Positions 4,666 to 58,379 of a stretch of 64,000 nucleotides of DNA are shown piece after piece; the stretch's first letter is position 1, and every line of letters begins with the position of its first letter. A model generated the notes under the pieces. The model ran no database searches and was not told the origin of the DNA. It was given only the letters and a program-made list of their open reading frames with translations. Made by a program: the position numbers and the translations under genes. Source of the DNA: Minisyncoccota bacterium (GTDB lineage Bacteria > Patescibacteriota > Minisyncoccia > Phycocordibacterales > UBA918); assembly GCA_021129515.1 (NCBI GenBank), contig JAJOLD010000001.1:164850-228849 (forward strand), in the 5' to 3' direction.

Positions 4666-5574
4666 TCAAGTCTTCAAGGCTTCGATACCGCCCGTAATCT
4701 CTGATACCTCAGCGGTGATCACTGCCTGCCGTTCCTTGTTAAAGCGCAGTGTCAGTTCCTTTTCAATTTCCTTTGACTTGTCGGTTGCGCTCTTCATCGC
4801 AACCATACGCGCAGAGTGCTCTGAGGCTTTGCTCTCGAGCATCGCGCGGTAGACCATGATCTGCACCAATTTTGGAATAAGAGATTTGAGCACCTCTTCT
4901 GGGTTTGGTTCGATGGTGTAGGTATGCTCACCCAAATCCTTTTCTTCCTCACTGTAGCGACCGGTCTTCGGTAAGATATCGCGCACCATCACCTCAAGCA
5001 CGTTTGGCTCAAGCGGCAGTACCTGACGAGTAAGGGCGTTCTGTTCAAATGTTGAAACAAAGTTTTGATATGCAATCGATACCTTGATGTACGCACCCCG
5101 ATCGAACATGCTTGTCACAAAGTCGATGAGGTCGTACATGTCATCGAGTTCTACATTGTCACTAATGTTGGTATATGACTTGTCGAGCATGTACCCTTCA
5201 CGGCTACAAAACTCCACCGCTTTTCGACCAAAGGCAATCATGCGCATGCGCTCCTTTTCGCCTGCAAATGACTTCTCAAGGTTCTTGAGTACTGCACTAT
5301 TGAGACTTCCTGCAAGCCCTTTATCACTCGTGATAACAATACAGCAGTGGTGTCCCTCGGCAGTATCACTCGGGGTCTCAAAAAAATGCTTTCCGTCGAG
5401 ACTGTTGCTGATACGGTGCAGAATGCGGATTGCTGACTCAGCGTACGGTTTCCCCGCGATTGCGCGCTCCTGACTTTTGCGCATCTTAACCGCAGAAACA
5501 GACTCCATCGCCTTGGTCACCTTGCCAGTCTTTTTGGTTGAAACTATTTGGTTTTTAATTTGTTTGAGACCCAT
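4666..5574 (-). CDS. atpG: F1 ATP synthase gamma subunit
   Basis: 302 aa, gamma N- and C-terminal helices (MGLKQIKNQI...ITGGIEALKT). Confidence 0.9.
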   Translation of the reverse strand: MGLKQIKNQIVSTKKTGKVTKAMESVSAVKMRKSQERAIAGKPYAESAIRILHRISNSLDGKHFFETPSDTAEGHHCCIVITSDKGLAGSLNSAVLKNLEKSFAGEKERMRMIAFGRKAVEFCSREGYMLDKSYTNISDNVELDDMYDLIDFVTSMFDRGAYIKVSIAYQNFVSTFEQNALTRQVLPLEPNVLEVMVRDILPKTGRYSEEEKDLGEHTYTIEPNPEEVLKSLIPKLVQIMVYRAMLESKASEHSARMVAMKSATDKSKEIEKELTLRFNKERQAVITAEVSEITGGIEALKT

Positions 5575-5600
5575 AGTGGTGTGTAATGATTACTTGATCA

Positions 5601-7166
5601 TTAAGCTTGATAGAAGTTTGGATGCGCTTCTTTGAATGCTGGAATTGATTCGGTCAGTGCTTTTTCGGTTTCTTCAGAAATTGCTTTTTCTGACTCAATA
5701 CTTTCAAGTACGGTCCTGTGATCACGTTCGATGAAGCCTTGGTATGCTTCCTCAATTTCCTTCACTTGCTCCACTGCTGCACCATCAAAGATGCCGTTGT
5801 TTGCTGCAAAGAGAATGACTACCTGCTTGTAGAACGCAAGTGGCTGTCCCTGCACCTGCTTCAAGAGCTCGGTGAACTTACGACCGCTTTCGATACGTGC
5901 CTTGGTTTCTTCATCGAGGTCACTTGCAAACTGCATAAATGCTTCAAGTTCACGGAACTGTGCAAGTTCAAGACGAATCTTTCCTGACACCTTCTTCATT
6001 GCTTTGGTCTGTGCAGCACTACCGACACGAGATACGGAAATACCCACGTTCAGTGCAGGTCGAATACCTTTGTTGAAGAGATCGGTCTCAAGGAAAATCT
6101 GTCCATCGGTAATTGAAATCACATTGGTTGGAATGTATGCAGATACGTCACCTTCTTGTGTTTCAATGATTGGAAGTGCGGTAATAGAACCACCGCCAAG
6201 CTTTTCTGAAAGCTTGGCTGATCGTTCGAGGAGTCGTGAATGGAGGTAGAAAATGTCTCCCGGGTATGCTTCTCGTCCTGGAGGTCGTCGAAGCAAGAGT
6301 GACATTTGTCGATATGCAACCGCGTGTTTTGAAAGGTCATCAAAAATAACGAGCACATCCTTTCCTTGCTCCATGAAGTACTCACCAATAGCTGCTCCTG
6401 CAAATGGTGCGAGGAACAACAGTGGTGATGGCTCAAATGGAGAGGTCGTGATGACGGTGGTGTACTCCATTGCACCAGCTTCTTGGAGCTTACCAACGAT
6501 ACCAGCAGTTTTGGACTGCTTCTGTCCAATTGCAACATAAATACAGATTGGACGTGTCGCTTCAGGTTCGTACTTCTGGTTGATGATGGTGTCGATGGCG
6601 ACAGTTGTTTTACCGGTACCACGGTCACCAATAATAAGTTCGCGCTGCCCGCGACCAATAGGAATCATGGAATCCACTGATTTGATACCAGTGTGAATTG
6701 GTGTATCAACGCCTGAGCGCTCCATCACACCGTATGCAACGCGCTCAATTGGCATGTCTTTGTCAGTTTTGATGGTGCCCTGTCCATCAACAGCTTCACC
6801 AAGTGGATTGATGACACGTCCAACGATATCTTCACCAACCGGAATAGAAAGCAACTTTCCAGTTCGGCGCACCTGCATACCCTCCTGTACCGCAGTGGTG
6901 TCACCAAGGACAACCACCTTCACCGCATTTTCCTCAAGGTTGAGGATGAGTCCGTAGAGTACGGCGTCAGACGCAATGGTCTCTTCGAGTGTTTTACCGT
7001 CACCATCGTCAAAGACGACCATCTCCATCATCTGTGCAGATGCGAGACCATCGATCTCTGCGATACCGTCTCCGATACCGGTCACCACACCGATTTCCTC
7101 AGCTGCGACTGATGCATCGATGTTTTCGATTTCCTTTTTGATTCGTTCAATAATTGCTGTACTCAT
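5601..7166 (-). CDS. atpA: F1 ATP synthase alpha subunit
   Basis: P-loop GDRGTGKTT, 521 aa. Confidence 0.97.
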   Translation of the reverse strand: MSTAIIERIKKEIENIDASVAAEEIGVVTGIGDGIAEIDGLASAQMMEMVVFDDGDGKTLEETIASDAVLYGLILNLEENAVKVVVLGDTTAVQEGMQVRRTGKLLSIPVGEDIVGRVINPLGEAVDGQGTIKTDKDMPIERVAYGVMERSGVDTPIHTGIKSVDSMIPIGRGQRELIIGDRGTGKTTVAIDTIINQKYEPEATRPICIYVAIGQKQSKTAGIVGKLQEAGAMEYTTVITTSPFEPSPLLFLAPFAGAAIGEYFMEQGKDVLVIFDDLSKHAVAYRQMSLLLRRPPGREAYPGDIFYLHSRLLERSAKLSEKLGGGSITALPIIETQEGDVSAYIPTNVISITDGQIFLETDLFNKGIRPALNVGISVSRVGSAAQTKAMKKVSGKIRLELAQFRELEAFMQFASDLDEETKARIESGRKFTELLKQVQGQPLAFYKQVVILFAANNGIFDGAAVEQVKEIEEAYQGFIERDHRTVLESIESEKAISEETEKALTESIPAFKEAHPNFYQA

Positions 7167-9172: not shown

Positions 9173-9385
9173 CTATTGCACGCGGGCAGTATATCCTAAC
9201 CTTTCAATCTCTTCAACAATGTTCTGTACGGAAACCTCGTTGAGATCTACTTCAAATATCCCCTTTTTATTATCGAGATCAATATGTACGAATTCCACAC
9301 CATGCAACATCTCGGTCATGGTTTGAATACCAACCACACAGTGGTTTGAGCGAATACCTGAAATGGAGATTTCAATCTTGTCCAT
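9173..9385 (-). CDS. small protein with HMA-like ferredoxin fold signature (no CxxC); longest ORF to 9457 uses TTG
   Basis: MDKIEISISGIRSNHCVVGIQT...; immediately upstream of atpB. Confidence 0.3.
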   Translation of the reverse strand: MDKIEISISGIRSNHCVVGIQTMTEMLHGVEFVHIDLDNKKGIFEVDLNEVSVQNIVEEIERLGYTARVQ

Positions 9386-9416
9386 GGGTATAGTATATAG
9401 TACGTTGAAAATATAC

Positions 9417-9445
9417 TTGACCTTCGAGTGCAAAACTCGTATTAT
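9417..9445 (+). promoter_or_regulatory. sigma70-like promoter TTGACC-17-TATTAT reading into the tRNA-Ala locus
   Basis: consensus -35 and -10 hexamers with 17-nt spacer; identical hexamers at 63547-63575 upstream of rpmG. Confidence 0.45.
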
Positions 9446-9482
9446 AGGCAGGTTCAATTTTTTGAACGCCCATTTTTTATAC

Positions 9483-9504
9483 GGGCCTGTAGCTCAGTTT
9501 GGCT
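9483..9504 (+). pseudogene. tRNA-Ala 5' fragment (acceptor 5' strand, D-stem 5' strand, D-loop), 22 nt, followed by hairpin 9509-9535
   Basis: GGGCCTGTAGCTCAGTTTGGCT matches first 22 nt of the full tRNA-Ala with one change. Confidence 0.7.
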
Positions 9505-9542
9505 GGGGTTGAAAAAGTCTGGGGGACTTTTTCAAAGTTTTG

Positions 9543-9583
9543 ATTTATAAATTAACAAATGAGTTTATTGTTCAGTGCACTGT
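9543..9583. repeat. left arm of ~45-bp imperfect inverted repeat flanking tRNA-Ala
   Basis: atttataaattaacaaatgagtt...ttcagtgcactg is the reverse complement of 9659-9704. Confidence 0.7.
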
Positions 9584-9658
9584 GGGCCCGTAGCTCAGTT
9601 TGGCTAGAGCACCTGTTTTGCACTCAGGAGGTCGCTGGTTCGAGTCCAGTCGGGTCCA
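9584..9658 (+). tRNA. tRNA-Ala (anticodon UGC)
   Basis: cloverleaf folds manually; G3:U70 Ala identity pair; T-loop TTCGAGT; CCA not encoded. Confidence 0.9.
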
Positions 9659-9704
9659 CAGTGCACTGAACTTCAAACGTGAACTCATTTGTTAATTTAT
9701 AAAT
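9659..9704. repeat. right arm of inverted repeat flanking tRNA-Ala
   Basis: reverse complement of 9543-9583 with one indel. Confidence 0.7.
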
Positions 9705-9722
9705 ACTCAGGAGGTCACTGGT
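9705..9722 (+). pseudogene. partial tRNA-Ala copy (anticodon-loop 3' side through T-stem 5' strand), 17/18 match
   Basis: actcaggaggtcactggt vs tRNA ctcaggaggtcgctggt. Confidence 0.6.
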
Positions 9723-10033
9723 GAGAAGCGAATACTTGGAGTGAGAAGTGCTGGGAGCACTTTGCAAGAGGTTAACTGCTGCGCAAGCAGCGACAACCTG
9801 AACAGCTTCAGTGTGAAGTCGCAAGACCTTGGGAGATATTTCTGGAAGCATGAACAGAAATATCCTCAAGGTTGAAACAGGATGTTTCAAGAGGTTGTCA
9901 GTCACGTAAGTGACGACAACCTATACTGCATTTGTAAAATGCACAGAATCTGTATGCAAGGCATTCTAAAACTGCATTCGTAATCCAGATAAAAGTAAAC
10001 TTTATATCTGGTTACTCATTTGTTTTAGTAAGA

Positions 10034-10055
10034 TTCGAGTCCAGTCGGGTCCACA
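10034..10055 (+). pseudogene. tRNA-Ala 3' fragment (T-loop through acceptor 3' strand and discriminator)
   Basis: ttcgagtccagtcgggtccaca identical to 3' 22 nt of tRNA-Ala; separated from 9705-9722 by ~310-nt hairpin-rich insert. Confidence 0.7.
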
Positions 10056-10123
10056 ACACATAAGAAAACCTGCCCTGCGGTAGGTTTTTGCGTTGTGGAA
10101 GGTAAAACTATATTTTTTCTATT

Positions 10124-10190
10124 CCTACATTAAAAAATATTTTTGCCCGGGCAGGTGCTAGTTATGAGCGTTAGCGTGAGAAATGACTTA
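10124..10190. repeat. copy A of tRNA-flank mosaic repeat (cctacat...aaaaata...cccgggcaggt)
   Basis: shares motif with 52776-52844 and 54848-54915. Confidence 0.55.
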
Positions 10191-10425
10191 ACGTCATTTT
10201 GCAAGACTCACTAAGATATTTGAAGTATGAGAAATATCTTAGTGAGTAGACAGTTCCTGTAAGGAATTACTAGCGAACGACACCAGAAGGTCTCGCTTTG
10301 CTTTCGTTTCTATGTGGAAGGCGAAGCGCTGTGAGTTGCCCCTTACCTAGGGTGACGAACCGAGGGTCCGAACAGGAGGTTCTTAGCAAACAAAGTGAAC
10401 TTAGAAACCTGACGTCATCAGAAAA

Positions 10426-10465
10426 GCGAAAAGAGCCCTCTCACTAGTGAGAGGGCTCTTTTCGC
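10426..10465. terminator. 19-bp perfect hairpin (gcgaaaagagccctctcac-tag-gtgagagggctcttttcgc), T-tract on minus-strand side
   Basis: seen directly; lies in the ~600-nt leader upstream of the cyclase gene. Confidence 0.4.
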
Positions 10466-10705
10466 TTAGAAAAACAAGATTATCAATGTCGTATTCAATC
10501 AAAATGTTCTCAGCCATTTTTTGAGCCTTGTCGTAGTTGGGAATTCCCATATATCTATAGTATCCACCTCCTCAGTAAAATGTAACTTATCCCCCATGCC
10601 CTCCTGACAACTTCCGTAAGAGGCATACCCTACGTATAGGACTCGTGCTTGCAGCGGGTTCGTTTTGGGTATAGGGTAGGAGGACATCCTTCACGTACGA
10701 GCAAC

Positions 10706-28437: not shown

Positions 28438-28525
28438 TCTCTGGATTAGCCTGCGGCGTCTTCTGTGGCTGTGTAGTACTTCGAGCTAGCTGTGAGAGGG
28501 TCATTTTGACCCGTCTCGGGCTAGT

Positions 28526-28548
28526 CGTAAGTGGCTGCCGGAGGGACT
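28526..28548 (-). pseudogene. degenerate tRNA-Gln 3'-end copy (minus sense gacgagtccctccggcagcc)
   Basis: compare tRNA-Gln 3' end ttcgagtccctgtccggcagc; a second, inverted T-arm copy lies at 28601-28626 on the plus strand. Confidence 0.45.
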
Positions 28549-28642
28549 CGTCCTGACGGTTTCTAAACTCACTTCGTTCGTTAAGAACCGCGGGACACGG
28601 CTCGCAGACCCAAAGGGTCCCCTGCTCCGGCGGTTCGAGTCC

Positions 28643-28670
28643 CAAGAAAGGTGCGCAGGCACCTTTCTTG
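28643..28670. other. perfect 12-bp hairpin caagaaaggtgc-GCAG-gcacctttcttg
   Basis: seen directly; adjacent to tRNA-Gln fragments. Confidence 0.6.
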
Positions 28671-28680
28671 TCCAGTAGCA

Positions 28681-28705
28681 TGAGAAAAAGCGCATAAAGC
28701 GCTTT
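28681..28705 (-). terminator. terminator after tRNA-Gln (aaagcgc-tttat-gcgcttt + TTTCTC in minus sense)
   Basis: 7-bp stem and U tract downstream of the tRNA. Confidence 0.5.
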
Positions 28706-28716
28706 AGACTCTCGTG

Positions 28717-28787
28717 CTGCCGGACAGGGACTCGAACCCCGATATCGACGACCAAAACGTCGCGTCCTACCATTAGACGATCCGGCA
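28717..28787 (-). tRNA. tRNA-Gln (anticodon UUG)
   Basis: manual cloverleaf: acceptor UGCCGGA/UCCGGCA, anticodon loop UUUUGGU, T-loop TTCGAGT. Confidence 0.85.
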
Positions 28788-28791
28788 ATAT

Positions 28792-29481
28792 TTACTTTTG
28801 CGTGGCGATTATAGCATATATCCACCCCATAATGCGACGATTCATAGCTGTACTCTTCTTAACTCGCACTGATACCAAGCCTATGTACGAATCATCAACT
28901 TTCTTTCTAACAGTTTTGGGATTATGTTTCTTATATATGGTACGACCAAAGCTGTTTGCAGGAATGCTCAGTGCATCTGACCAAATCTTTATTATCTTTT
29001 TCTCTCTGGATTTATGATTCTCGTGCAAGTGCAATCGCAGAACAATATCTTGCTCACAGACCTCCGTAAACTTATATAGCCATGCAATAAACAACTTGAG
29101 CATATGAGGATCTGAATTACCGAAGTCAACCATAATACCTGTTCTGTCAGCACTTTTCTTCGCTCCTTCAGCCCAGTACAATGCAATACCAATGAAGAAT
29201 AGTTCTCTGTCAGTGAGGTGTGAGATATCTTCTTTACACATCTTATTAATCTTTTCAGTTTCCGCTATTCGTATCTCCCGTTTCCGAGCAGCTCCACGCA
29301 ATTGCGCAGCACGCTTCTTGTCCGTCAGCCGTTGCTTTTGCTTTTGACCTAAACCAACATCACGCAGCCAAAGAGAGAGCGTGGATTTTGATACTGGCAC
29401 AATGCGCAATATCTCATTGTATGTTTTACCCTGCTTGCGCAACGCGACTGCTTTCTGTTTCTCTTTCTCTTTTAGAGTCAT
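28792..29481 (-). CDS. HTH (resolvase/IS630-type) + LAGLIDADG-like homing endonuclease candidate
   Basis: N-terminal KQGKTYNEILRIVPVSKSTLSLWLRD HTH; FIGIALYWAEGAKKS as LAGLIDADG variant with acidic residue; stop 4 nt from tRNA-Gln 5' end. Confidence 0.4.
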   Translation of the reverse strand: MTLKEKEKQKAVALRKQGKTYNEILRIVPVSKSTLSLWLRDVGLGQKQKQRLTDKKRAAQLRGAARKREIRIAETEKINKMCKEDISHLTDRELFFIGIALYWAEGAKKSADRTGIMVDFGNSDPHMLKLFIAWLYKFTEVCEQDIVLRLHLHENHKSREKKIIKIWSDALSIPANSFGRTIYKKHNPKTVRKKVDDSYIGLVSVRVKKSTAMNRRIMGWIYAIIATQK

Positions 29482-48560: not shown

Positions 48561-48571
48561 AATATATGTGA

Positions 48572-48650
48572 GTAGGAATTGGTAGGTAAAACAGTACGGG
48601 GTACTGTTTTACCTCAAAATCATATGGAGCAATCCATGAGGGTTTGACCT
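48572..48650 (+). pseudogene. tRNA-Leu pseudo-copy with hairpin (48585-48613) replacing D-stem 3' and anticodon-stem 5' strands
   Basis: ggaattggta + hairpin + cctcaaaatcatatggagcaatccatgagggtttgacc parallels the tRNA. Confidence 0.55.
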
Positions 48651-50800: not shown

Positions 50801-52150
50801 ATGCAGCGTGTCGATTTTGCATACCCTCTGGTACACAAGTACGCACTACAATTAATTATTATGGTGGGATTGCTGCTTTCGTATAGCACAACCGCACATG
50901 CCGCACCCTGTCATACCTATACGTATGCAAACACACCACAGAGCACACTTGGTGCACCCTATGACGTGTTTGATAGTGCGCACCGCACACTCGTGCGTGT
51001 AGACTGCTCCGACAACACCATCCAACTCACCTTAGGAAACACCGGGCGCAAACACCTCATACACACAACTGGGTATATAGAGTTCTCGCCAGGCGTGTTT
51101 ACCCCTTTTTCCATTACTCCCGCTACTGCTGCCGTTACCCTTGATGCTTCATGGATAGTTGCGCACGCAGCGCAAGGCACAATCACGGTACCGCCCACCG
51201 CATATGGCACCACTGCGTATATCTATACATACCTCTGCCAAGTACGCAGCGGTGCTGAGGGCAAGAGCCTCAAGTGTGGATGTAATGCTACCTCGCAACA
51301 TTCGTGTACACAAACACACGGCACGTATGCAGGAAGCTGGACACTGCAAAAAGTAACCATTCCAACACCAACCACATCCACACACAATACCGAAAAAGGA
51401 TTCCGTATTCTTATCGGCACTAACCAGCTCTATCCAGAAGAAGCAGCGCAAGCACATCGCTTTGCAGCAGATGGTGCGTGGGTACTACATCGTAATAGTC
51501 CTCCAGGAATTAATTGGAAGCAAACACTCAAAACACTCAATGCAGATACCTGGACCGTTTCTGAAAACAATCCCGGAGGGACTGGCGGTGTGACAAACTT
51601 CACCGTTGCACATACCGGAAAAATGGTTGATGCTGCCATGTTTTATGAGGAGATACCCATGAAGACAATACTTCCTGATACCCTGATTGATCATTTTGCC
51701 GCACATACCGTGGCAGGATATGGCAGCATCGGAAAACGTATGGTGGTACTCACTCGTAGCTTTGGAGTCAGTGACCCCCGCCGTGCAGAGCTCATACATG
51801 CACTCTCACACCCAATGGTTGTGGGTGCAACCTTCGAGTTTAACCCGAGCATACTGAATCCTGCATGGAAGATACCCGAAGGCTGTGCTTATGTGCTCAG
51901 TCTTGGCAAGCAGTGTTACCTCCTTATGCCACCAATACGAGATGGCAATACCGATTTCCTCAGTAGCATACAACAGGCACTCAAAAAGTTTGAGCCAAGT
52001 GGTGTCCTCCGCAATCCCAACACCTATCTCATTCCCGCGGTCTATGCACGCCCCAATAATCAACACTTCCTCAGCACCAGCCCATCCGATAGAAATAGTA
52101 TTGAAGCAATTGTGACATGGCTCAAAGCATATCGAAGAGAATTCCAATAA
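50801..52150 (+). CDS. secreted hypothetical protein
   Basis: N-terminal signal peptide ...STTAHAAP; 449 aa no motif. Confidence 0.5.
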   Translation: MQRVDFAYPLVHKYALQLIIMVGLLLSYSTTAHAAPCHTYTYANTPQSTLGAPYDVFDSAHRTLVRVDCSDNTIQLTLGNTGRKHLIHTTGYIEFSPGVFTPFSITPATAAVTLDASWIVAHAAQGTITVPPTAYGTTAYIYTYLCQVRSGAEGKSLKCGCNATSQHSCTQTHGTYAGSWTLQKVTIPTPTTSTHNTEKGFRILIGTNQLYPEEAAQAHRFAADGAWVLHRNSPPGINWKQTLKTLNADTWTVSENNPGGTGGVTNFTVAHTGKMVDAAMFYEEIPMKTILPDTLIDHFAAHTVAGYGSIGKRMVVLTRSFGVSDPRRAELIHALSHPMVVGATFEFNPSILNPAWKIPEGCAYVLSLGKQCYLLMPPIRDGNTDFLSSIQQALKKFEPSGVLRNPNTYLIPAVYARPNNQHFLSTSPSDRNSIEAIVTWLKAYRREFQ

Positions 52151-52215
52151 CAATCATATACAGGAATCCGTTTGACCTTCTTCTCAGTTTGCCCTACCAT
52201 ATGGGGCATTGATTA

Positions 52216-52287
52216 GGGTCTATAGTTTAATTGGTAAAACAGCGGTCTCCAAAACCGCCGTTCTCAGTTCAAGTCTGAGTGGACCCG
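52216..52287 (+). tRNA. tRNA-Trp (anticodon CCA)
   Basis: manual fold; anticodon loop CUCCAAA. Confidence 0.9.
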
Positions 52288-52312
52288 CAGTGATTCAACA
52301 TTCTGTAATAGT

Positions 52313-52397
52313 CTTCTTACAGAAGCAGTATACCTTTTGGACATTCTTCATAATATCTCAAAAGGTCTTGCAAAAGTGCTTTGGCACTTTCTCACCC
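52313..52397. repeat. mosaic repeat piece (cttcttacagaagcagtatacc...ggtcttgcaaaagtgc), homologous to 54782-54850
   Basis: direct comparison. Confidence 0.55.
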
Positions 52398-52408
52398 AGA
52401 CTGTTTAA

Positions 52409-52449
52409 GTCCAAAACCAGCGGCCGTGGTTCGAGTCCACGTGGGCCCG
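52409..52449 (+). pseudogene. diverged tRNA 3' half (anticodon CCA onward: gtccaaaacc...cgtggttcgagtccacgtgggcccg)
   Basis: same layout as tRNA-Trp 3' half but different T-arm/acceptor sequence. Confidence 0.5.
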
Positions 52450-52456
52450 CTATCAG

Positions 52457-52489
52457 AAAATACCCAGCTTTTGCTGGGTATTTTCTTTT
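52457..52489 (+). terminator. rho-independent terminator aaaatacccagc-tttt-gctgggtatttt + cttttac
   Basis: perfect stem + T tract. Confidence 0.65.
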
Positions 52490-52693
52490 ACCCGAAGTTA
52501 AGTTTCAGAACTTTTTATTGTATTTTTTATTTTTTTATTGCATAGTTGAAATCAACCTGGGTACAAGTATGTGTTTGGAGTACTCCTGCTCATTACTCTA
52601 CTTTTCGTCAAGTTCAAGTGACGGTAACAAACCGCTTTCCCTTTCTGGGTGAGCGGTGTTTTTATACAACCAACTCCTGCAATATTTGAATGT

Positions 52694-52844
52694 TTGATTT
52701 GATATACTCCCTTTCTTTATACAGTTCTGAAAGCCACGTTTCTTGCCCGAAAAGAATTTGTATATTTTTGCTATACCTACATGCAAAAATACAAATTCTC
52801 GGGCAGGTAATTCTTATGAATGTAATGAATTAGAATTGGACGCC
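52694..52844. repeat. mosaic repeat copy B (R1 piece + cctacatgcaaaaataca...cgggcaggtaa...ttggacgcc)
   Basis: aligned to copies at 10124, 53669, 54782. Confidence 0.6.
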
Positions 52845-53127
52845 GAGTCCTCACGAACAAATCCTTTACCAAGAATCTTGCGCCGCCCGAGCAAACTGCT
52901 TTGCTTTTACTCGAGCGGGAGCCGCAGACAGATTTCTGGCTTCTGACATAGAGCCAGAAACAGTCGAGACGGGGTCGAGAGTACTTAGTGCTCACAACTA
53001 GCGAAGCGAATGAAAACACTTAGTCACTCGTGACCGCAATGAAATATTTAATAGTTACTGGTTATTTTTATGTACCCTACGTTTAAGTTCAGAACCTTCA
53101 TCAGCACTGTAGAGTTACAAAACCTAT

Positions 53128-53635
53128 ATGCAAATCATTTTATTTAGAGGGCGACCTGGTGTTGGAAAAACAACACCAACTAACGCATTTATAAAAAAGC
53201 ACCCTTACTTTCTCATTCGTAAGGACGACTTGTATGACGTAGCATCAGAGGTGCTCACTGAGCATCATGCCAGAAACAAAATCGCCTATGATGGCCTTTA
53301 TACACTGTTAGCAAGTAATGTGATGTACTCTAAGAGTGATTTTAGATTATCCGTTCCAGCACGATGGAGACATACACATCATGAGAAACTGGTGTCATCA
53401 AAACAATGTTGTTTTTAAATCAATTTTGGTGACCTGCTCTGACACACACGTTTGGTCAGAACGGCTAGCTGCCAGGTCTACAAACCCCAAACCAAATCAG
53501 TTGGTAACTGACTATGATGCATTTGAAAAAATGTACGGCACGATGCAGCTTGAAGCAGACACTGGTGAACTGGTTGTCGACAGCATACACCCAATTGAAA
53601 CAATCATACAGCAGGTTCGTAGTTTTGTGGCATAA
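53128..53635 (+). pseudogene. P-loop NTPase/kinase (AAA_33-like) split by a frameshift near 53340-53420
   Basis: Walker A GRPGVGKTT in ORF 53128-53418; continuation in ORF 53336-53635. Confidence 0.45.
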
Positions 53636-53668
53636 GCATCAATCGATACAAACTGTAGTGAGACCTGA

Positions 53669-53745
53669 ACGCTGGATTTGATACACTCCCGCTCCTCATG
53701 CAATTCTGAAAGCCACATTTTTTGCTCGAGAGTTGAAAATATGAA
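53669..53745. repeat. mosaic repeat piece R2 (ctggatttgatacactccc...ttctgaaagccac)
   Basis: ~60-nt similarity to 52694-52760; begins with inverted tRNA-Tyr T-arm-like ctggatttga. Confidence 0.55.
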
Positions 53746-53764
53746 GTTGCTGAGACATTCCCTA

Positions 53765-54139
53765 TTAACACTTCAATGTATTCCACCCACCCGTCTGTAA
53801 GAAGGATTGGTCAACAAGCATAGAGAGGATAGTGTCAATAATAAGCCATGCAGCAAGCATAATGATGAACCCTATCAGCACATTTGAAAAAATACCCTTC
53901 CCTTTCTGTATTTGGCTCATATTACCAGCAGCCGTAATCATCAAAAAACCTGCCCATGCAAATGCGATGCCAGCAAGTACTGTCGAGAATTTAATAATGA
54001 AGGTCAACATACGGTCAACCAATTCAAGCAGGTGACAAAAGTTACAATTTACTCCATTACACGGTACTAATTGTGCAAATGCCAAAGTAGGCACCAAGTA
54101 CCCTACCACCATTAAGATTGTCAACATGTAGAATCTCAT
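53765..54139 (-). CDS. VirB2/TrbC-like pilin candidate
   Basis: signal peptide, Cys-rich VPCNGVNCNFC, two hydrophobic helices, ~120 aa. Confidence 0.3.
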   Translation of the reverse strand: MRFYMLTILMVVGYLVPTLAFAQLVPCNGVNCNFCHLLELVDRMLTFIIKFSTVLAGIAFAWAGFLMITAAGNMSQIQKGKGIFSNVLIGFIIMLAAWLIIDTILSMLVDQSFLQTGGWNTLKC

Positions 54140-54248
54140 GCCTCAATAGTAGCACACCTTTTCTATCCACTTTCATACTTCAGTGAGTTATGGTACGGTA
54201 TACCCTGCGTTTTGTATTGCAATTTATGCAGAATACAGTTTCACACAT

Positions 54249-54594
54249 GCGTCGGTGGCAGAGTGAGAAAGCGTGGGACGCTTTCGCAAGACCTTGCCCG
54301 ATATTTTTTGAGGCGAATGCCGACAGTAAAATATCGACAAGGTGTACAGCGTCTGTAAGACGGAAAGGATGTCGGGACACTCTTCTAAGAAAAAGCGTTC
54401 TAACAAAAGAATAATTATGCGTCGGTGGCAGAGTGGATGAGAAGTGAACTACTTCACTTCTCATCTGGTCTTCGAGCGAATGCGAGAAGATTGGTCGTTA
54501 TGAGTATTTGCGCAGCTTATACGAATAGACCAAAGGAGGAAACGCGGTCGAACGCCCGCCAGAGAAAATGCGTTCTTACTAAAATCGGATACTT
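54249..54594 (+). repeat. two tandem ~170-176-bp units each containing leader + tRNA-Tyr 5' 17-18 nt + perfect hairpin (54267-54284; 54437-54464)
   Basis: GCGTCGGTGGCAGAGTG at 54249 and 54419 equals tRNA-Tyr 5' end; upstream leaders also similar. Confidence 0.7.
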
Positions 54595-54678
54595 GCGTCG
54601 GTGGCAGAGTGGTCAATTGCATCAGACTGTAAATCTGACGGGCTTCGCCCTACGCTGGTTCAAATCCAGCCCGGCGCA
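54595..54678 (+). tRNA. tRNA-Tyr (anticodon GUA), long variable arm
   Basis: manual fold; anticodon loop CUGUAAA; T-arm GCTGG-TTCAAAT-CCAGC. Confidence 0.9.
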
Positions 54679-54680
54679 CA

Positions 54681-54712
54681 AATAAAAACACCCCGGATGG
54701 GGTGTTTTTATT
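54681..54712 (+). terminator. rho-independent terminator aaaacaccccggatggggtgttttt
   Basis: perfect stem + T tract. Confidence 0.65.
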
Positions 54713-54759
54713 TGTGCGCCGGGAGCACGTGACCTGCGTCACGTGCGGCTGGATTTGAA
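54711..54759 (-). pseudogene. inverted copy of tRNA-Tyr 3' end interrupted by 23-nt palindromic hairpin (agcacgtgacctgcgtcacgtgc)
   Basis: tttgtgcgccggg[...]ggctggatttgaa is the reverse complement of ttcaaatccagcccggcgcacaaa. Confidence 0.6.
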
Positions 54760-54781
54760 AGGAATTCATATATTTTTCCTA

Positions 54782-54915
54782 CTTCTTATAGAAGCAGTAC
54801 ACCTTTGTAAACAAAGGTCTTGCGAAAGTCTCCAAGACTTTTTCACCTACATGGAAAAATATGAATTCCCGGGCAGGTAACTCTTGAGAGCGTAAGCGAA
54901 CTAGAGTTGGACGCC
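54782..54915. repeat. mosaic repeat copy C (complete version)
   Basis: cttcttatagaagcag...cctacatggaaaaatatgaattcccgggcaggtaactc...ttggacgcc. Confidence 0.6.
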
Positions 54916-55036
54916 AAATTCAGTCCCTATACTCACTCCCCTATCTAGCTGACAAACTCCAAAATCAGTCCTGCGTTTTTCAAAACAATGTAATAAAGAA
55001 ACCGCCCGACAGCGCAGGCGGCTCTCGGGCGTCATT

Positions 55037-55360
55037 TTAGTTTTCTCCTTGTTTCATGAGAACAGTAACTGCTTCGTATGCTTTTGGACACTCGTCGCGC
55101 ACCACAGATAGAAATACCTCAATCAGCAGATCTAGATTGCGTGCCATACCAGCTGCAACTCTTGGAGATATGCAGTGGGAGTAGTCGTCAAACAAGGACC
55201 ACGACACATCTTCCCAGGGTATTTGCTTGTCCGCCTCTTCGAGAGCAGCCGCATAGACATCAAAATGCGTTCGGTGGTCAGCTTTGATAAGAGGAGAGAT
55301 GGTTCCCAAAGGGCGATTTCTCCGTTGAAACCAACGTCGATATCCCAACCTTGCCTGCAA
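55037..55360 (-). CDS. hypothetical protein
   Basis: 107 aa ORF; hairpin + T tract downstream in minus sense. Confidence 0.3.
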   Translation of the reverse strand: MQARLGYRRWFQRRNRPLGTISPLIKADHRTHFDVYAAALEEADKQIPWEDVSWSLFDDYSHCISPRVAAGMARNLDLLIEVFLSVVRDECPKAYEAVTVLMKQGEN

Positions 55361-58181: not shown

Positions 58182-58379
58182 ACTCAGCATACAACGGTCA
58201 TCGGGTGAGCTATGGTCGTACCGCAACCGATGACCTCACTGAAATCCTGAATCAGGTTCAGGATGACAACCACCCAAAACATGTTTCAAAAGTGTTCAGA
58301 TTCGCAGTGAGATATGCTGGGAGCACTGTTACACCTAAACAGCTCCTGTAAGGAGGCAAGCAAGTACTTCTTGAGTGCA

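Follow-up and report, generated by a model that had tools for sequence, protein, structure and literature searches.

Repeat pieces beside tRNA genes of a Minisyncoccota bacterium belong to an apparently undescribed three-hairpin family of Patescibacteria, possibly an old folded-strand element with a tRNA-anchored form

What are the short, mutually similar pieces of DNA that lie beside the tRNA genes of a Minisyncoccota bacterium? The question is raised by a 64,000-nt stretch of contig JAJOLD010000001.1 (hereafter the window), and above all by a 2.9-kb part of it that is bounded by a gene ending at 52150 and a gene ending at 55037 and contains tRNA-Trp, tRNA-Tyr, a frameshifted kinase-like pseudogene and a pilin gene. 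A preliminary description, made from the letters alone, had listed here and beside tRNA-Ala the copies of a ~135-nt element and of a second piece. It had offered three roles for them: attachment (att) or arm sites of integrative elements that target tRNA genes, a conserved promoter-leader module, or a small non-coding RNA (ncRNA). The window holds five tRNA genes according to ARAGORN (Ala, Gln, Leu, Trp, and Tyr) and no tmRNA, and its protein genes include miaA, truB, a peroxiredoxin gene and a gene for a type IV secretion system (T4SS)-type pilin. Our analysis shows that the pieces are built from a small three-hairpin module whose fold is under selection, and from larger units in which related hairpins are anchored on the 3' ends of tRNA genes.

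All listed pieces were recovered at their positions, both by repeat search (80-94% identity; Table 1) and by BLAST (E values from 8e-7 to 3e-11). In the BLAST comparisons 52775-52844 matched 54845-54915 with an E value of 3e-11, and 10109-10167 matched 52761-52819 with 76% identity (E 8e-7). A motif pattern derived from the copies found four matches in the window and none in 100 shuffles. The list of copies was correct as far as it went but incomplete, since further copies are present at 54258-54367, 9736-9823, 9867-9946 and 10171-10271, together with a partial one at 58302-58360. Several tRNA pieces had also been left out of it: tRNA-Tyr 5' fragments at 54249-54265 and 54419-54436, a tRNA-Trp 3' fragment at 52410-52450, and an inverted tRNA-Tyr 3' end at 54714-54759. 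The second piece does open with the tRNA-Tyr T arm in reverse complement (gctggatttga, 53672-53682). The sequence described as a complete ~135-nt element is present at 54782-54915, but it is not a single unit; it is a nested composite of the module and a host hairpin unit.

The proximal half of this composite is the three-hairpin module, which is 75-110 nt long and is best read on the opposite strand. Its consensus is GUGAGAA-H1-UUYGCAAGA-H2-URNAC-WG-H3, where hairpin H1 has 6-8 bp, H2 has the form CCUUG..CAAGG, contains a bulged A and varies in the length of its apex, and H3 has 5 bp and a GUA loop. Among the six window copies, 18 of 24 pairs were changed on both sides and 93.9% of the cells were paired, compared with ~45% in slid controls; none of 500 shuffles reached the observed values. 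A covariance model, R1, was built from these six copies. A DNA pattern consisting of the linkers and the H3 loop was scanned over 185,579 GTDB genomes, one per species, and matched at least 119 stretches, where by our own estimate about 5 would be expected by chance. Related loci from these pattern matches are given L numbers below, and the 8-kb blocks around the copies were examined. Among the matches listed, R1 detected 142 further copies, scoring 30-88 bits, in 116 of 119 loci. The carriers among these matches are nearly all metagenome-assembled genomes (MAGs) of Patescibacteria, labelled Kaiserbacteria, Zambryskiibacteria, Taylorbacteria, Paceibacterota/Parcubacteria or, in many cases, 'Saccharibacteria'. 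The window itself has the appearance of a Paceibacteria-type chromosome and is syntenic with one of them, the Paceibacterota MAG locus L126, at 65-72% identity; L128 and L107 are syntenic loci as well.

In an alignment of 93 sequences from other genomes, fitted to R1, every pair (22/22) displayed compensatory changes and 92.9% of the cells were paired (slid controls 40-50%). The search pattern imposes part of the linker conservation in this alignment, while the stems lie outside the pattern. Units in the fetched loci that were spotted by eye, not by the pattern, keep GUAC-WG and the CUGUAAG hairpin. On one strand G.U pairs exceeded A.C pairs by 71 to 25 (p = 3e-6, one systematic C.A internal-loop position excluded). 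Between the closest copies and positional orthologs, 67 double compensatory and 13 G.U-preserving changes were counted, compared with 22 breaking changes; L052 and L068, which have a gene-start duplication in common, differ by 6 compensatory and 2 breaking changes. The borders of the module are sharp, with an information content that falls to zero directly outside GG/GUGAG and after H3. Because compensatory changes dominate between close copies and G.U exceeds A.C, the fold of the module is under selection and strand-specific, and the folded strand is RNA or single-stranded DNA. The covariation that had been suggested as a sign of a small ncRNA is thus found, in three hairpins and on one strand; what it supports is the structure, and not RNA identity beyond the structure. 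The preliminary description was also right that the family is real, as further genomes carry copies and the similarity is not one of A/T-rich low complexity. That the similarity is a matter of chance or of low-complexity A/T-rich sequence is a practically negligible prospect. The A/T-rich hairpin arms at 52753-52799 and 54761-54869 are indeed low in complexity, but the BLAST E values, the pattern matches against shuffles and the 142 covariance hits elsewhere refute it.

Database searches returned no known family for the module. At the gathering threshold, Rfam 15 matched only tRNA in the window and only tRNA, 5S rRNA, LSU rRNA and group I introns in 34 related loci; in E-value mode, 52100-55100 and 9300-10600 gave only sub-threshold chance hits. 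The core pattern had 42 matches in 2.9 million viral contigs, all by chance (best R1 score 18.8 bits), and a pattern of the tRNA-anchored form had none in the same contigs, so there is no evidence for a phage-borne element. A full-text literature search found no description of the module family, which is apparently undescribed, being absent from Rfam and from the searchable literature. Several candidates were set aside from the sequence, with no dedicated test beyond Rfam: tmRNA, hammerhead and other ribozymes, group II intron ends, T-boxes, CRISPR/TIGR arrays, TnpB/IscB guide RNAs and IS110 bridge RNAs all lack here the motifs, arrays or adjacent protein genes that define them.

The genomic context of the copies is intergenic (median gap 367 nt) and without preferred orientation, since 50 copies have the same orientation as the upstream gene and 50 the opposite one; tandem, convergent and divergent contexts number 58, 16 and 16. 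The 150 neighbouring open reading frames (ORFs) match 132 different Pfam families with no more than 3 members each, and include unrelated housekeeping genes such as rpsI, ftsZ, tig, nusG, parB, and secY. No positional enrichment of TANNNT, TTGNNN or T-runs was detected beside the modules. Pairing is 0.92 in copies that are sense to their neighbours and 0.925 in copies that are antisense to both. The promoter-leader module proposed at the outset is not supported by this evidence: orientation is random, there is no positional -10/-35 or T-run signal, and the fold is equally intact in sense and antisense. A riboswitch or other cis-regulatory leader was rejected for its random orientation, for the lack of a recurrent gene family and for a fold that is intact when antisense. 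A stand-alone small RNA gene with promoter and terminator at conserved distance was likewise rejected, because such signals are missing and the flanking information is zero.

Some positions are occupied in more than one species: 3' of rpsI, fusA, trmD, and ftsZ, and 5' of a GH1 gene, parB, and an unannotated protein gene (L124/L152). Divergence is about the same whether copies are compared within one genome or between genomes (0.68 and 0.66), and the best match lies in another genome for 86 of 98 copies. The family is therefore old and has had no recent bursts. Inverted module pairs are found in L068, L127, L151, L056, and L131. In two of these loci, L131 (6459-6794) and L056 (3450-3632), the pair lies immediately 3' of the 5S rRNA gene with which the rRNA operon ends. 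Copies are also nested within other hairpins and within the flanks of other copies.

Signatures of insertion are found at part of the copies. Thirty-six of the 142 copies lie no more than 300 nt from a tRNA gene, compared with 9.8 expected from random placement in the same loci (~3.7-fold); 26 of these are on the tRNA strand and 24 are downstream of the tRNA. About 75% of the copies are not within 300 nt of any tRNA gene called by ARAGORN. At 22 of 137 copies (16%) the 17-76 nt that abut the 5' end of the module recur 0-280 nt downstream as the start of an intact gene. The duplicated targets are tRNA-Asn, Tyr, Gly and Arg, a 5S rRNA segment (confirmed by Rfam) and protein genes, of which the first 30-45 nt are duplicated; one GH1 gene is affected in two species. 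Directly before UGAGAA, the left copy of the duplication ends without exception in ..GG or ..GAG. In three loci no more than 2 nt separate H3 from the start of the right copy, which makes the bare module the smallest unit inserted. Other insertions are clean or have duplications of 2-4 nt, for instance GTAG at window positions 54776/54852, and GG is duplicated in L141 and L107, where an inverted module entered the direct repeat at the acceptor/T-stem junction. Four relatives (L128, L107, L143, and L118) have a bare upstream region of tRNA-Tyr where the window has two inserts; the three-fold gcgtcggtggcagagtg repeat of the window (54249, 54419, 54595) is the result of two inserts, one after the other, that each came with a duplication of the first 17-19 nt of tRNA-Tyr. 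Around dispersed modules the 5' and 3' flanks were not more complementary to each other than those of controls, and only the tRNA-anchored form is closed by a helix. A 26-nt piece of 5S rRNA is duplicated beside a module in L131.

The tRNA-anchored form has a recurrent order 3' of the tRNA gene. A terminator hairpin is followed by a complement of the acceptor 3' strand (segA), by H1, and by a complement of the T-stem 3' strand and T loop (segB, ..GGAUUCGAA); then comes either AAG-H2-GUAC-WG-H3 or a longer insert, and finally a direct repeat of the tRNA 3' end. This order recurs at at least 12 tRNAs, which differ in specificity, among them window Tyr, L110 Ser, L141 His, L128 Leu/Trp/Tyr, L126 Leu, L145 Val, L149 Gly, L151 Phe, L143 Tyr and L077 Asn. 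The longer inserts are of the type CGGAGC...GGUCGAGA-ACUUAG-hairpin-CUUAGUNACUYGUGAC or of the type cgggcaggta...ttggacgcc. In a sample of 79 tRNAs, taken from loci selected for carrying a module, an inverted copy of the tRNA's own 3' end was found downstream in 27/78, a direct 3' repeat in 17/78 and a direct 5' repeat upstream in 12/79, with ~1% expected for each. The direct 3' repeat is most commonly 18-19 nt long, starts at T-loop position 56/57, is mostly 100% identical and never includes CCA; in the window the repeat of tRNA-Ala is perfect (21/21) and those of Trp and Leu are diverged. The inserts bounded by the direct repeat measure 110-280 nt, and 916 nt in L107.

In the anchored units segA and segB pair with the direct repeat, which gives a closed four-arm predicted fold with z scores of -6.9, -6.9 and -4.5 for short units, -5.7 for window 54712-54932 (RNAfold, -75.5 kcal/mol) and -3.6 for the window tRNA-Gln unit. 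In 54712-54932 the predicted closing helix is GGCUGGAUUU:AAAUUCAGUC, so that segA and segB close one structure. The complement at L107 tRNA-Tyr lies ~650 nt from the tRNA, beyond a small ORF, and yet adjoins the direct repeat; because it sits beside the repeat and far from the tRNA, the relevant partner of segA and segB is the direct repeat. A comparison of tRNA-Tyr loci from five species shows joint change of the tRNA 3' end, the complement and, where recognisable, the direct repeat. Two anchored units score as weak modules with R1 (L128 2682 and L151 3980), and in the L107 tRNA-Leu unit H1 is followed by CGCAAGAG, which runs into the tRNA complement. On these two grounds the dispersed module looks like an orphan derivative of the anchored form. 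A CCUGCG loop is common to the H1 of several anchored units (window 54724-54747, window 28643-28668, L110 323-346 and the L145 tRNA-Val unit). By its sequence this loop is complementary to the GCAGG of the downstream cgggcaggta, and a tertiary pairing of loop and strand is possible. In L126 a free-standing LAGLIDADG_3 ORF (5306-5905, Pfam E 1e-7) begins 29 nt beyond the terminal direct repeat of the tRNA-Leu unit, and could link homing endonucleases to these loci.

The pieces of the Trp-Tyr region can be assigned to these two forms (Table 1). Next to tRNA-Trp, 52308-52400 is an inverted module and 52410-52450 is probably what is left of an earlier tRNA-Trp, its displaced 3' part, after which comes a terminator hairpin at 52455-52486. 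The stretches 52687-52858 and 53666-53729 are best read as older copies of anchored units that have lost their tRNA. The host unit 52753-52858 is made up of an A/T-rich hairpin (arms 52753-52767 / 52785-52799, loop ..cctacat..), cgggcaggta at 52800-52809 and a hairpin ATTCT..AGAAT, and closes with ttggacgcc (52836-52844) and the T-loop-like remnant gagtcctcacgaac (52845-52858). In L141 and L110 a host unit of this type ends directly on a tRNA 3'-end direct repeat, and so, in other genomes, does the segment type found at 52973-53034. Counting the intact tRNA-Tyr, the tRNA 5' sequence is present in three copies at a spacing of 170 and 176 nt. Part of the second insert, 54426-54478, is 79% identical to L129 4555-4607.

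Downstream of tRNA-Tyr, 54714-54759 is segA-H1-segB of this tRNA, 54761-54915 the body of the unit with a nested inverted module, and 54916-54927 the decayed direct repeat. Here segA is gtgcgccggg (54714-54723), and segB (54748-54759) corresponds, in reverse complement, to the T loop of tRNA-Tyr together with its T-stem 3' strand. The host unit 54761-54927 contains the A/T hairpin (arms 54761-54775 / 54855-54869), cgggcaggta (54870-54879), a hairpin ACTCT..AGAGT (54880-54907) and tggacgcc (54908-54915), and runs into aaattcagtccc (54916-54927), which repeats the tRNA-Tyr T loop and 3' end. Its A/T hairpin has the module in the loop, whereas the paralogous hairpin 52753-52799 is uninterrupted, its loop (52768-52784) being empty. 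The tip of the second host-unit hairpin carries a module in window 10171-10271, L110 and L126, and none at 52810-52836 and 54880-54907. Two public short-read contigs of the same strain (L001 and L002, 99.95-99.97% identical) end at window 54680, in the tRNA-Tyr palindrome, and at 52400, in module c2; as the contigs end exactly at these two features, the repeats break assemblies.

The tRNA-Ala locus, 9484-10056, is probably a dismembered tRNA-Ala copy that carries three modules in its T loop and surrounds the intact gene. A 5' fragment (9484-9505) and an H1-like hairpin precede the intact gene (9584-9659), and a middle fragment (9706-9723) follows it. The modules stand in tandem at 9736-9823, ~9815-9880 and 9867-9946, and the locus ends with a junction domain (9947-10035) and a 3' fragment from the T loop (10036-10056); 9940-10031 is 68% identical to L071 2731-2641. 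The intact gene lies inside an inverted repeat, 9543-9590 / 9651-9704, with arms of 48-54 nt that are 85% complementary, and the whole lies within the dismembered second copy. The host unit that follows, at 10108-10280, has BLAST matches to 52761-52819 and 54846-54898; the layout of L110 362-551 is the same, and L126 5146-5253 is 90% identical.

A complete closed unit is also present downstream of tRNA-Gln (28716-28787), at 28525-28685 on the minus strand (RNAfold, z as above). It consists of segA gctactggac, H1 with the CCUGCG loop, segB gggactcgaa, a CCGGAGC.. body and the direct repeat gagtccctccggcagc. Adjoining the same tRNA, the minus strand at 28792-29481 encodes a 229-aa protein with an N-terminal HTH_23 / resolvase-type HTH and a remainder without Pfam match. 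Four of the five window tRNAs thus carry a module or a closed unit, and the fifth, tRNA-Leu(CAA), has only a displaced 3' fragment: at 48561-48650 the gene is followed, after a 47-nt terminator hairpin, by a diverged copy of its 3' part from the anticodon loop (tcaaaatcatatggagcaatccatgagggtttgacc), and no module is present. The orthologous tRNA-Leu genes in L126, L128 and L107 bear full units.

Table 1. Repeat pairs and parts of the window, in window positions (R1, covariance model; A/T, A/T-rich).
Feature	Position	Strand	Evidence
Repeat pair, 92% identical	52313-52337 / 54782-54806		Repeat search
Repeat pair, 94% identical	52361-52377 / 54813-54829		Repeat search
Repeat pair, 84% identical	52749-52773 / 54757-54781		Repeat search
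Repeat pair, 82% identical	52775-52825 / 54845-54895		Repeat search
Repeat pair, 89% identical	52827-52844 / 54898-54915		Repeat search
Repeat pair, 80% identical	52687-52750 / 53666-53729		Repeat search
tRNA-Ala locus	9484-10056	+	Sequence; R1 86.4 and 67.7 bits; direct 3' repeat 21/21
Host unit (A/T hairpin with cctacat, cgggcaggt) with module c5 (10171-10271) at tip of GCTAGT..ACTAGC hairpin; includes the copy first listed as 10124-10190	10108-10280	+	R1 73.4 bits
tRNA-Trp(CCA), intact	52216-52288	+	ARAGORN; Rfam tRNA 65.9 bits
Module c2, GUGAGAA-H1-UUUGCAAGA-H2-UAUAC-UG-H3; the piece first listed as 52313-52397	52308-52400	-	R1 85 bits; alignment and pair counts
Diverged 3' part of second tRNA-Trp (anticodon loop to 3' end), direct repeat of intact gene	52410-52450	+	71% identical
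Second piece, copy 1, with decayed reverse-complement T-arm remnant gtttgatttga at start	52687-52750	+	80% identical to 53666-53729; BLAST E 8e-10
Host unit without nested module	52753-52858	+	Repeat search; stem arms covary with 54761/54855 copy
Conserved GGTCGAGA-GTACTTAG-hairpin-CTTAGTCACTCGTGAC segment	52973-53034	+	Pattern also in L075, L116, L129, L146
Second piece, copy 2, begins gctggatttga (reverse complement of tRNA-Tyr T arm)	53666-53729	+	Repeat search
tRNA-Tyr 5' fragment A (acceptor strand and D arm to D loop), fused to module c1	54249-54265	+	Flanking direct-repeat score 19
Module c1	54258-54367	+	R1 85.9 bits; 84-87% identical to L110 13-109
tRNA-Tyr 5' fragment B (54419-54436), fused to second, related hairpin-rich insert starting GATGAGAAG (hairpin 54422-54479)	54419-54590	+	
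tRNA-Tyr(GTA), intact	54595-54679	+	ARAGORN; Rfam
Perfect palindrome, 25-nt arms, 100% complementary: tRNA-Tyr acceptor 3' strand, terminator hairpin, its complement	54670-54723	+	
Small hairpin H1 (54724-54747, loop CCUGCG) and segB gctggatttgaa (54748-54759)	54724-54759	+	Layout at at least 12 tRNAs elsewhere
Host unit with nested module	54761-54927	+	Repeat search; RNAfold
Module c3, short H2, in loop of A/T hairpin	54777-54851	-	R1 72 bits; flanks CTAC/CTAC (GTAG on module strand)
Partial module (H1 and H3, without H2), truB / GH15 intergenic region	58302-58360	+	R1 31.8 bits, E 2e-5

What kind of element would leave such traces? The explanation that we put forward, with about an even chance of being correct, is an old, non-autonomous element that is mobilised in trans as a folded strand, of the REP/REPIN or attC kind, and whose tRNA-anchored form would restore the gene by recombination in the T loop. 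A protein that recognises the folded strand would mobilise it. At a tRNA gene the closing stem would be a double-stranded replica of the segment from the T loop to the 3' end. An exchange within the T loop would, because of this replica, yield an intact tRNA again, and the 3' end that it displaces would stay behind as the direct repeat. The tRNA-Tyr 5' fragments of the window, its tRNA-Trp and tRNA-Ala 3' fragments and its inverted T-arm pieces would be by-products of such insertions. The long persistence of the copies and their evolution by compensatory changes suggest that resident copies have also acquired a host use. Several observations weigh against a mobile element. No recurrent transposase, integrase or reverse transcriptase was found among the 150 neighbouring ORFs or in the window flanks, and because none adjoins any copy the mobilising activity is hypothetical. 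Near-identical copies within one genome were not found, hence nothing points to activity at present. At orthologous sites the orientation is not always the same (rpsI, fusA, trmD), so that independent insertions or inversions are needed. Target duplications are detectable in only 16% of the copies and vary in length from 2 to 76 nt, and we know of no transposase that makes duplications of such variable length. The tRNA fractions given above are not genome-wide, and linker conservation in the 142 copies is partly forced by the search pattern. The folded strand may be DNA or RNA, and an RNA selected by the host would explain the compensatory evolution of resident copies no less well than a mobile element would.

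That last point leads to the main alternative, a multi-copy structured ncRNA, whose anchored units would be co-transcribed with the tRNA, folded into a closed tRNA-like body with an acceptor/T-type stem made of the tRNA 3'-end complement and the direct repeat, and released by tRNA-processing enzymes, with dispersed copies as orphans; a tRNA mimic, a decoy or a protein-binding RNA are possible roles. We consider it somewhat unlikely. It would account for the strong covariation in the six window copies and in the 93-copy alignment, the excess of G.U over A.C on one strand, the compensatory changes between positional orthologs, the placement of tRNA-proximal copies on the tRNA strand (26/36) and downstream (24/36), the closed folds with z of -3.6 to -6.9, the joint change of tRNA-Tyr 3' end, complement and recognisable direct repeat across five species, and the long retention in very small genomes. 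It is at odds with the absence of a conserved promoter or terminator at fixed distance, with the half of the dispersed copies that are antisense to both neighbours and equally well folded, with the terminator hairpin that separates tRNA from unit, with a G.U share of only ~2.5% of module pairs, which is low for RNA, and with direct repeats that lack CCA; the 17-76-nt gene-start duplications are not explained by it alone. An unlikely but specific variant of the folded-strand element is that the anchored units are matched to their target, an H1-H2-H3 scaffold whose arms are rewritten to the complement of the adjacent tRNA 3' end. If this were true, the folded strand would present a duplex replica of its own target and direct recombination or processing by tRNA enzymes to it, and the dispersed modules would be orphans; a protein-free 'address label' system made from tRNA 3' ends, widespread in the Candidate Phyla Radiation (CPR), would be without described precedent.

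The idea that led the preliminary description, att and arm sites of tRNA-targeting integrative elements, keeps part of its ground: direct 3'-end repeats of 18-19 nt do start in the T loop, and the tRNA 5' fragments of the window are target duplications beside inserted modules. As a full explanation it would make the pieces functionless, decaying attL/attR and arm scars of integrase-carrying islands or prophages that sat in tRNA genes and were later deleted, and this we judge improbable. The T loop and the anticodon loop, where the tRNA 3'-end repeats start, are the classical crossover positions of integrases; occupancy of orthologous tRNA loci varies, the L107 tRNA-Tyr insert has a cargo ORF, and a pseudogene and the T4SS pilin gene lie between the Trp and Tyr loci of the window. 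Scars would nevertheless not hold a compensated three-hairpin fold over more than 100 genomes. The inserts are only ~110-280 nt long with the same internal order at many different tRNAs, no integrase is found among the 150 neighbouring ORFs or in the window flanks, some three quarters of the copies are more than 300 nt from any ARAGORN-called tRNA gene, the 2.9 million viral contigs contain no real pattern match, and the inverted tRNA 3' copy is left unexplained. We have similarly little belief in an RNA resembling a short interspersed element (SINE), copied in trans by a reverse transcriptase, in which template switching or target-primed synthesis with variable second-strand nicks would generate chimeras of gene 5' ends and modules. 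Such copying would suit the duplication lengths of 2-76 nt, which begin a few nt upstream of the mature tRNA 5' end or start codon and end at a G-rich junction with the exact 5' end of the module; it would also suit the abundant RNAs among the targets (tRNA, 5S rRNA, mRNA 5' ends) and the variable 3' extent of the inserted segment. Against it, no reverse transcriptase lies near any copy among the neighbouring ORFs, there is no poly-A or other 3' tail, and neither the inverted tRNA 3' copy nor the conserved fold is explained; as the tRNA 3' repeats lack CCA, they were not copied from mature tRNA.

The folded-strand element was also compared with known systems. By this comparison the module fails the defining tests of every known family considered, and appears to behave most like repetitive extragenic palindromic (REP)-type and folded-att elements. 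REP, REPIN and BIME sequences are proteobacterial and are mobilised by RAYT transposases, a REP being a palindrome of 20-40 nt with a 5' GTAG. Like them, the module is short, non-coding, sharply bounded and extragenic, occurs in both orientations, in inverted pairs and in mosaics, has compensated hairpins and a conserved single-stranded motif at a hairpin foot, and persists for long alongside host functions. Unlike them, it has three hairpins in 75-110 nt, conserved linkers and the 5' motif GG/GUGAGAA in place of a single palindrome with GT(A/G)G, and we estimate tens of copies per genome, a rough extrapolation from seven copies in the 64-kb window, compared with hundreds. Long target duplications at some copies, and a tRNA-anchored form with a target-replicating stem, are not known from REPs. 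No RAYT or other transposase family recurs among the 150 neighbouring ORFs of the 8-kb blocks, whole genomes not having been scanned. Miniature inverted-repeat transposable elements differ in that the module has no terminal inverted repeats, its flank complementarity being that of controls, and has duplications of 2-76 nt instead of a fixed length. The pneumococcal BOX elements (boxA-boxB(n)-boxC) are likewise modular, mosaic intergenic repeats with variable internal modules, a stable predicted fold, no protein and no known mobilising enzyme, but they have no sequence relation to the module, occur in one genus where the module occurs in many candidate orders, and are not known to be linked to tRNA genes or target duplications.

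With integron attC sites and the CTX-phi attP(+) the anchored form shares the conservation of structure over sequence and a single functional strand, and small non-coding cassettes do occur among integron cassettes. The folded strand of attP(+) recreates the duplex of its target dif; here segA, segB and the direct repeat recreate the duplex from the T loop to the 3' end. The GTTRRRY R/L boxes, cassette arrays and intI of attC systems were not noticed in the loci read, where no formal attC search was made; the target of the putative recombination here would be a tRNA gene rather than attI or dif. Integrative elements that target tRNA genes, and their miniature, CIME-type derivatives, which accrete at tRNA genes or other att sites, show the same arrangement of intact tRNA, insert and direct repeat of the tRNA 3' part from the T or anticodon loop. 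Tandem accretion as in CIME-type elements is seen in the two units upstream of tRNA-Tyr and the three modules at tRNA-Ala in the window. The inserts differ from integrative elements in their length (110-280 nt, 916 nt in L107), their conserved fold, and the lack of an integrase in neighbours and flanks and of kb-scale cargo; moreover, the inverted att segment is part of the unit, and the scaffold also occurs far from tRNA genes, with duplications of protein-gene starts. In tRNA-like RNAs (tmRNA, YrlA-type Y RNAs, mascRNA) an acceptor/T-type stem likewise closes a larger body, and some adjoin or are processed like tRNAs. The units are nevertheless unmatched by ARAGORN and by the Rfam models of tRNA, tmRNA and Y RNA, their T loop is paired, and their stem is a perfect complement of the tRNA 3' strand, not the 5' strand.

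Non-functional DNA is believed to be scarce in the very small genomes of CPR bacteria (Patescibacteria), and their non-coding repertoire is almost unexplored. A fold of ~100 nt with 22/22 covarying pairs has statistical support on a par with good Rfam families, and this one is present in more than 100 species-level genomes. The family accounts for a lineage-wide oddity, in that about one third of the tRNA genes in the sampled loci carry their own inverted 3' end downstream and fewer carry direct partial copies. Such partial copies can mislead predictors of tRNAs, att sites and islands, in addition to breaking assemblies. If the folded strand serves as a recombination substrate, it would give these organisms, which rely on the uptake of DNA, a new means of genome plasticity; should it be RNA, the family would add an abundant new class of RNAs with a link to tRNA biology.

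Among the protein genes of the region, the window pilin has no exact match on record, and a 449-aa neighbour protein matched only the same strain (99.97% identical) and distant homologues of at most 57% identity. Between the Trp and Tyr loci, two overlapping ORFs at 53128-53635 (96 and 99 aa) resemble a frameshifted AAA_33-type kinase gene and are probably a pseudogene. In two related loci, from Patescibacteria MAGs, a tRNA-Asn has a group I intron in its anticodon loop (L064 7290-7600 and, on the minus strand, L071 3170-2860; RF00028, 88 and 77 bits), and ARAGORN misses both genes because the introns interrupt this loop.

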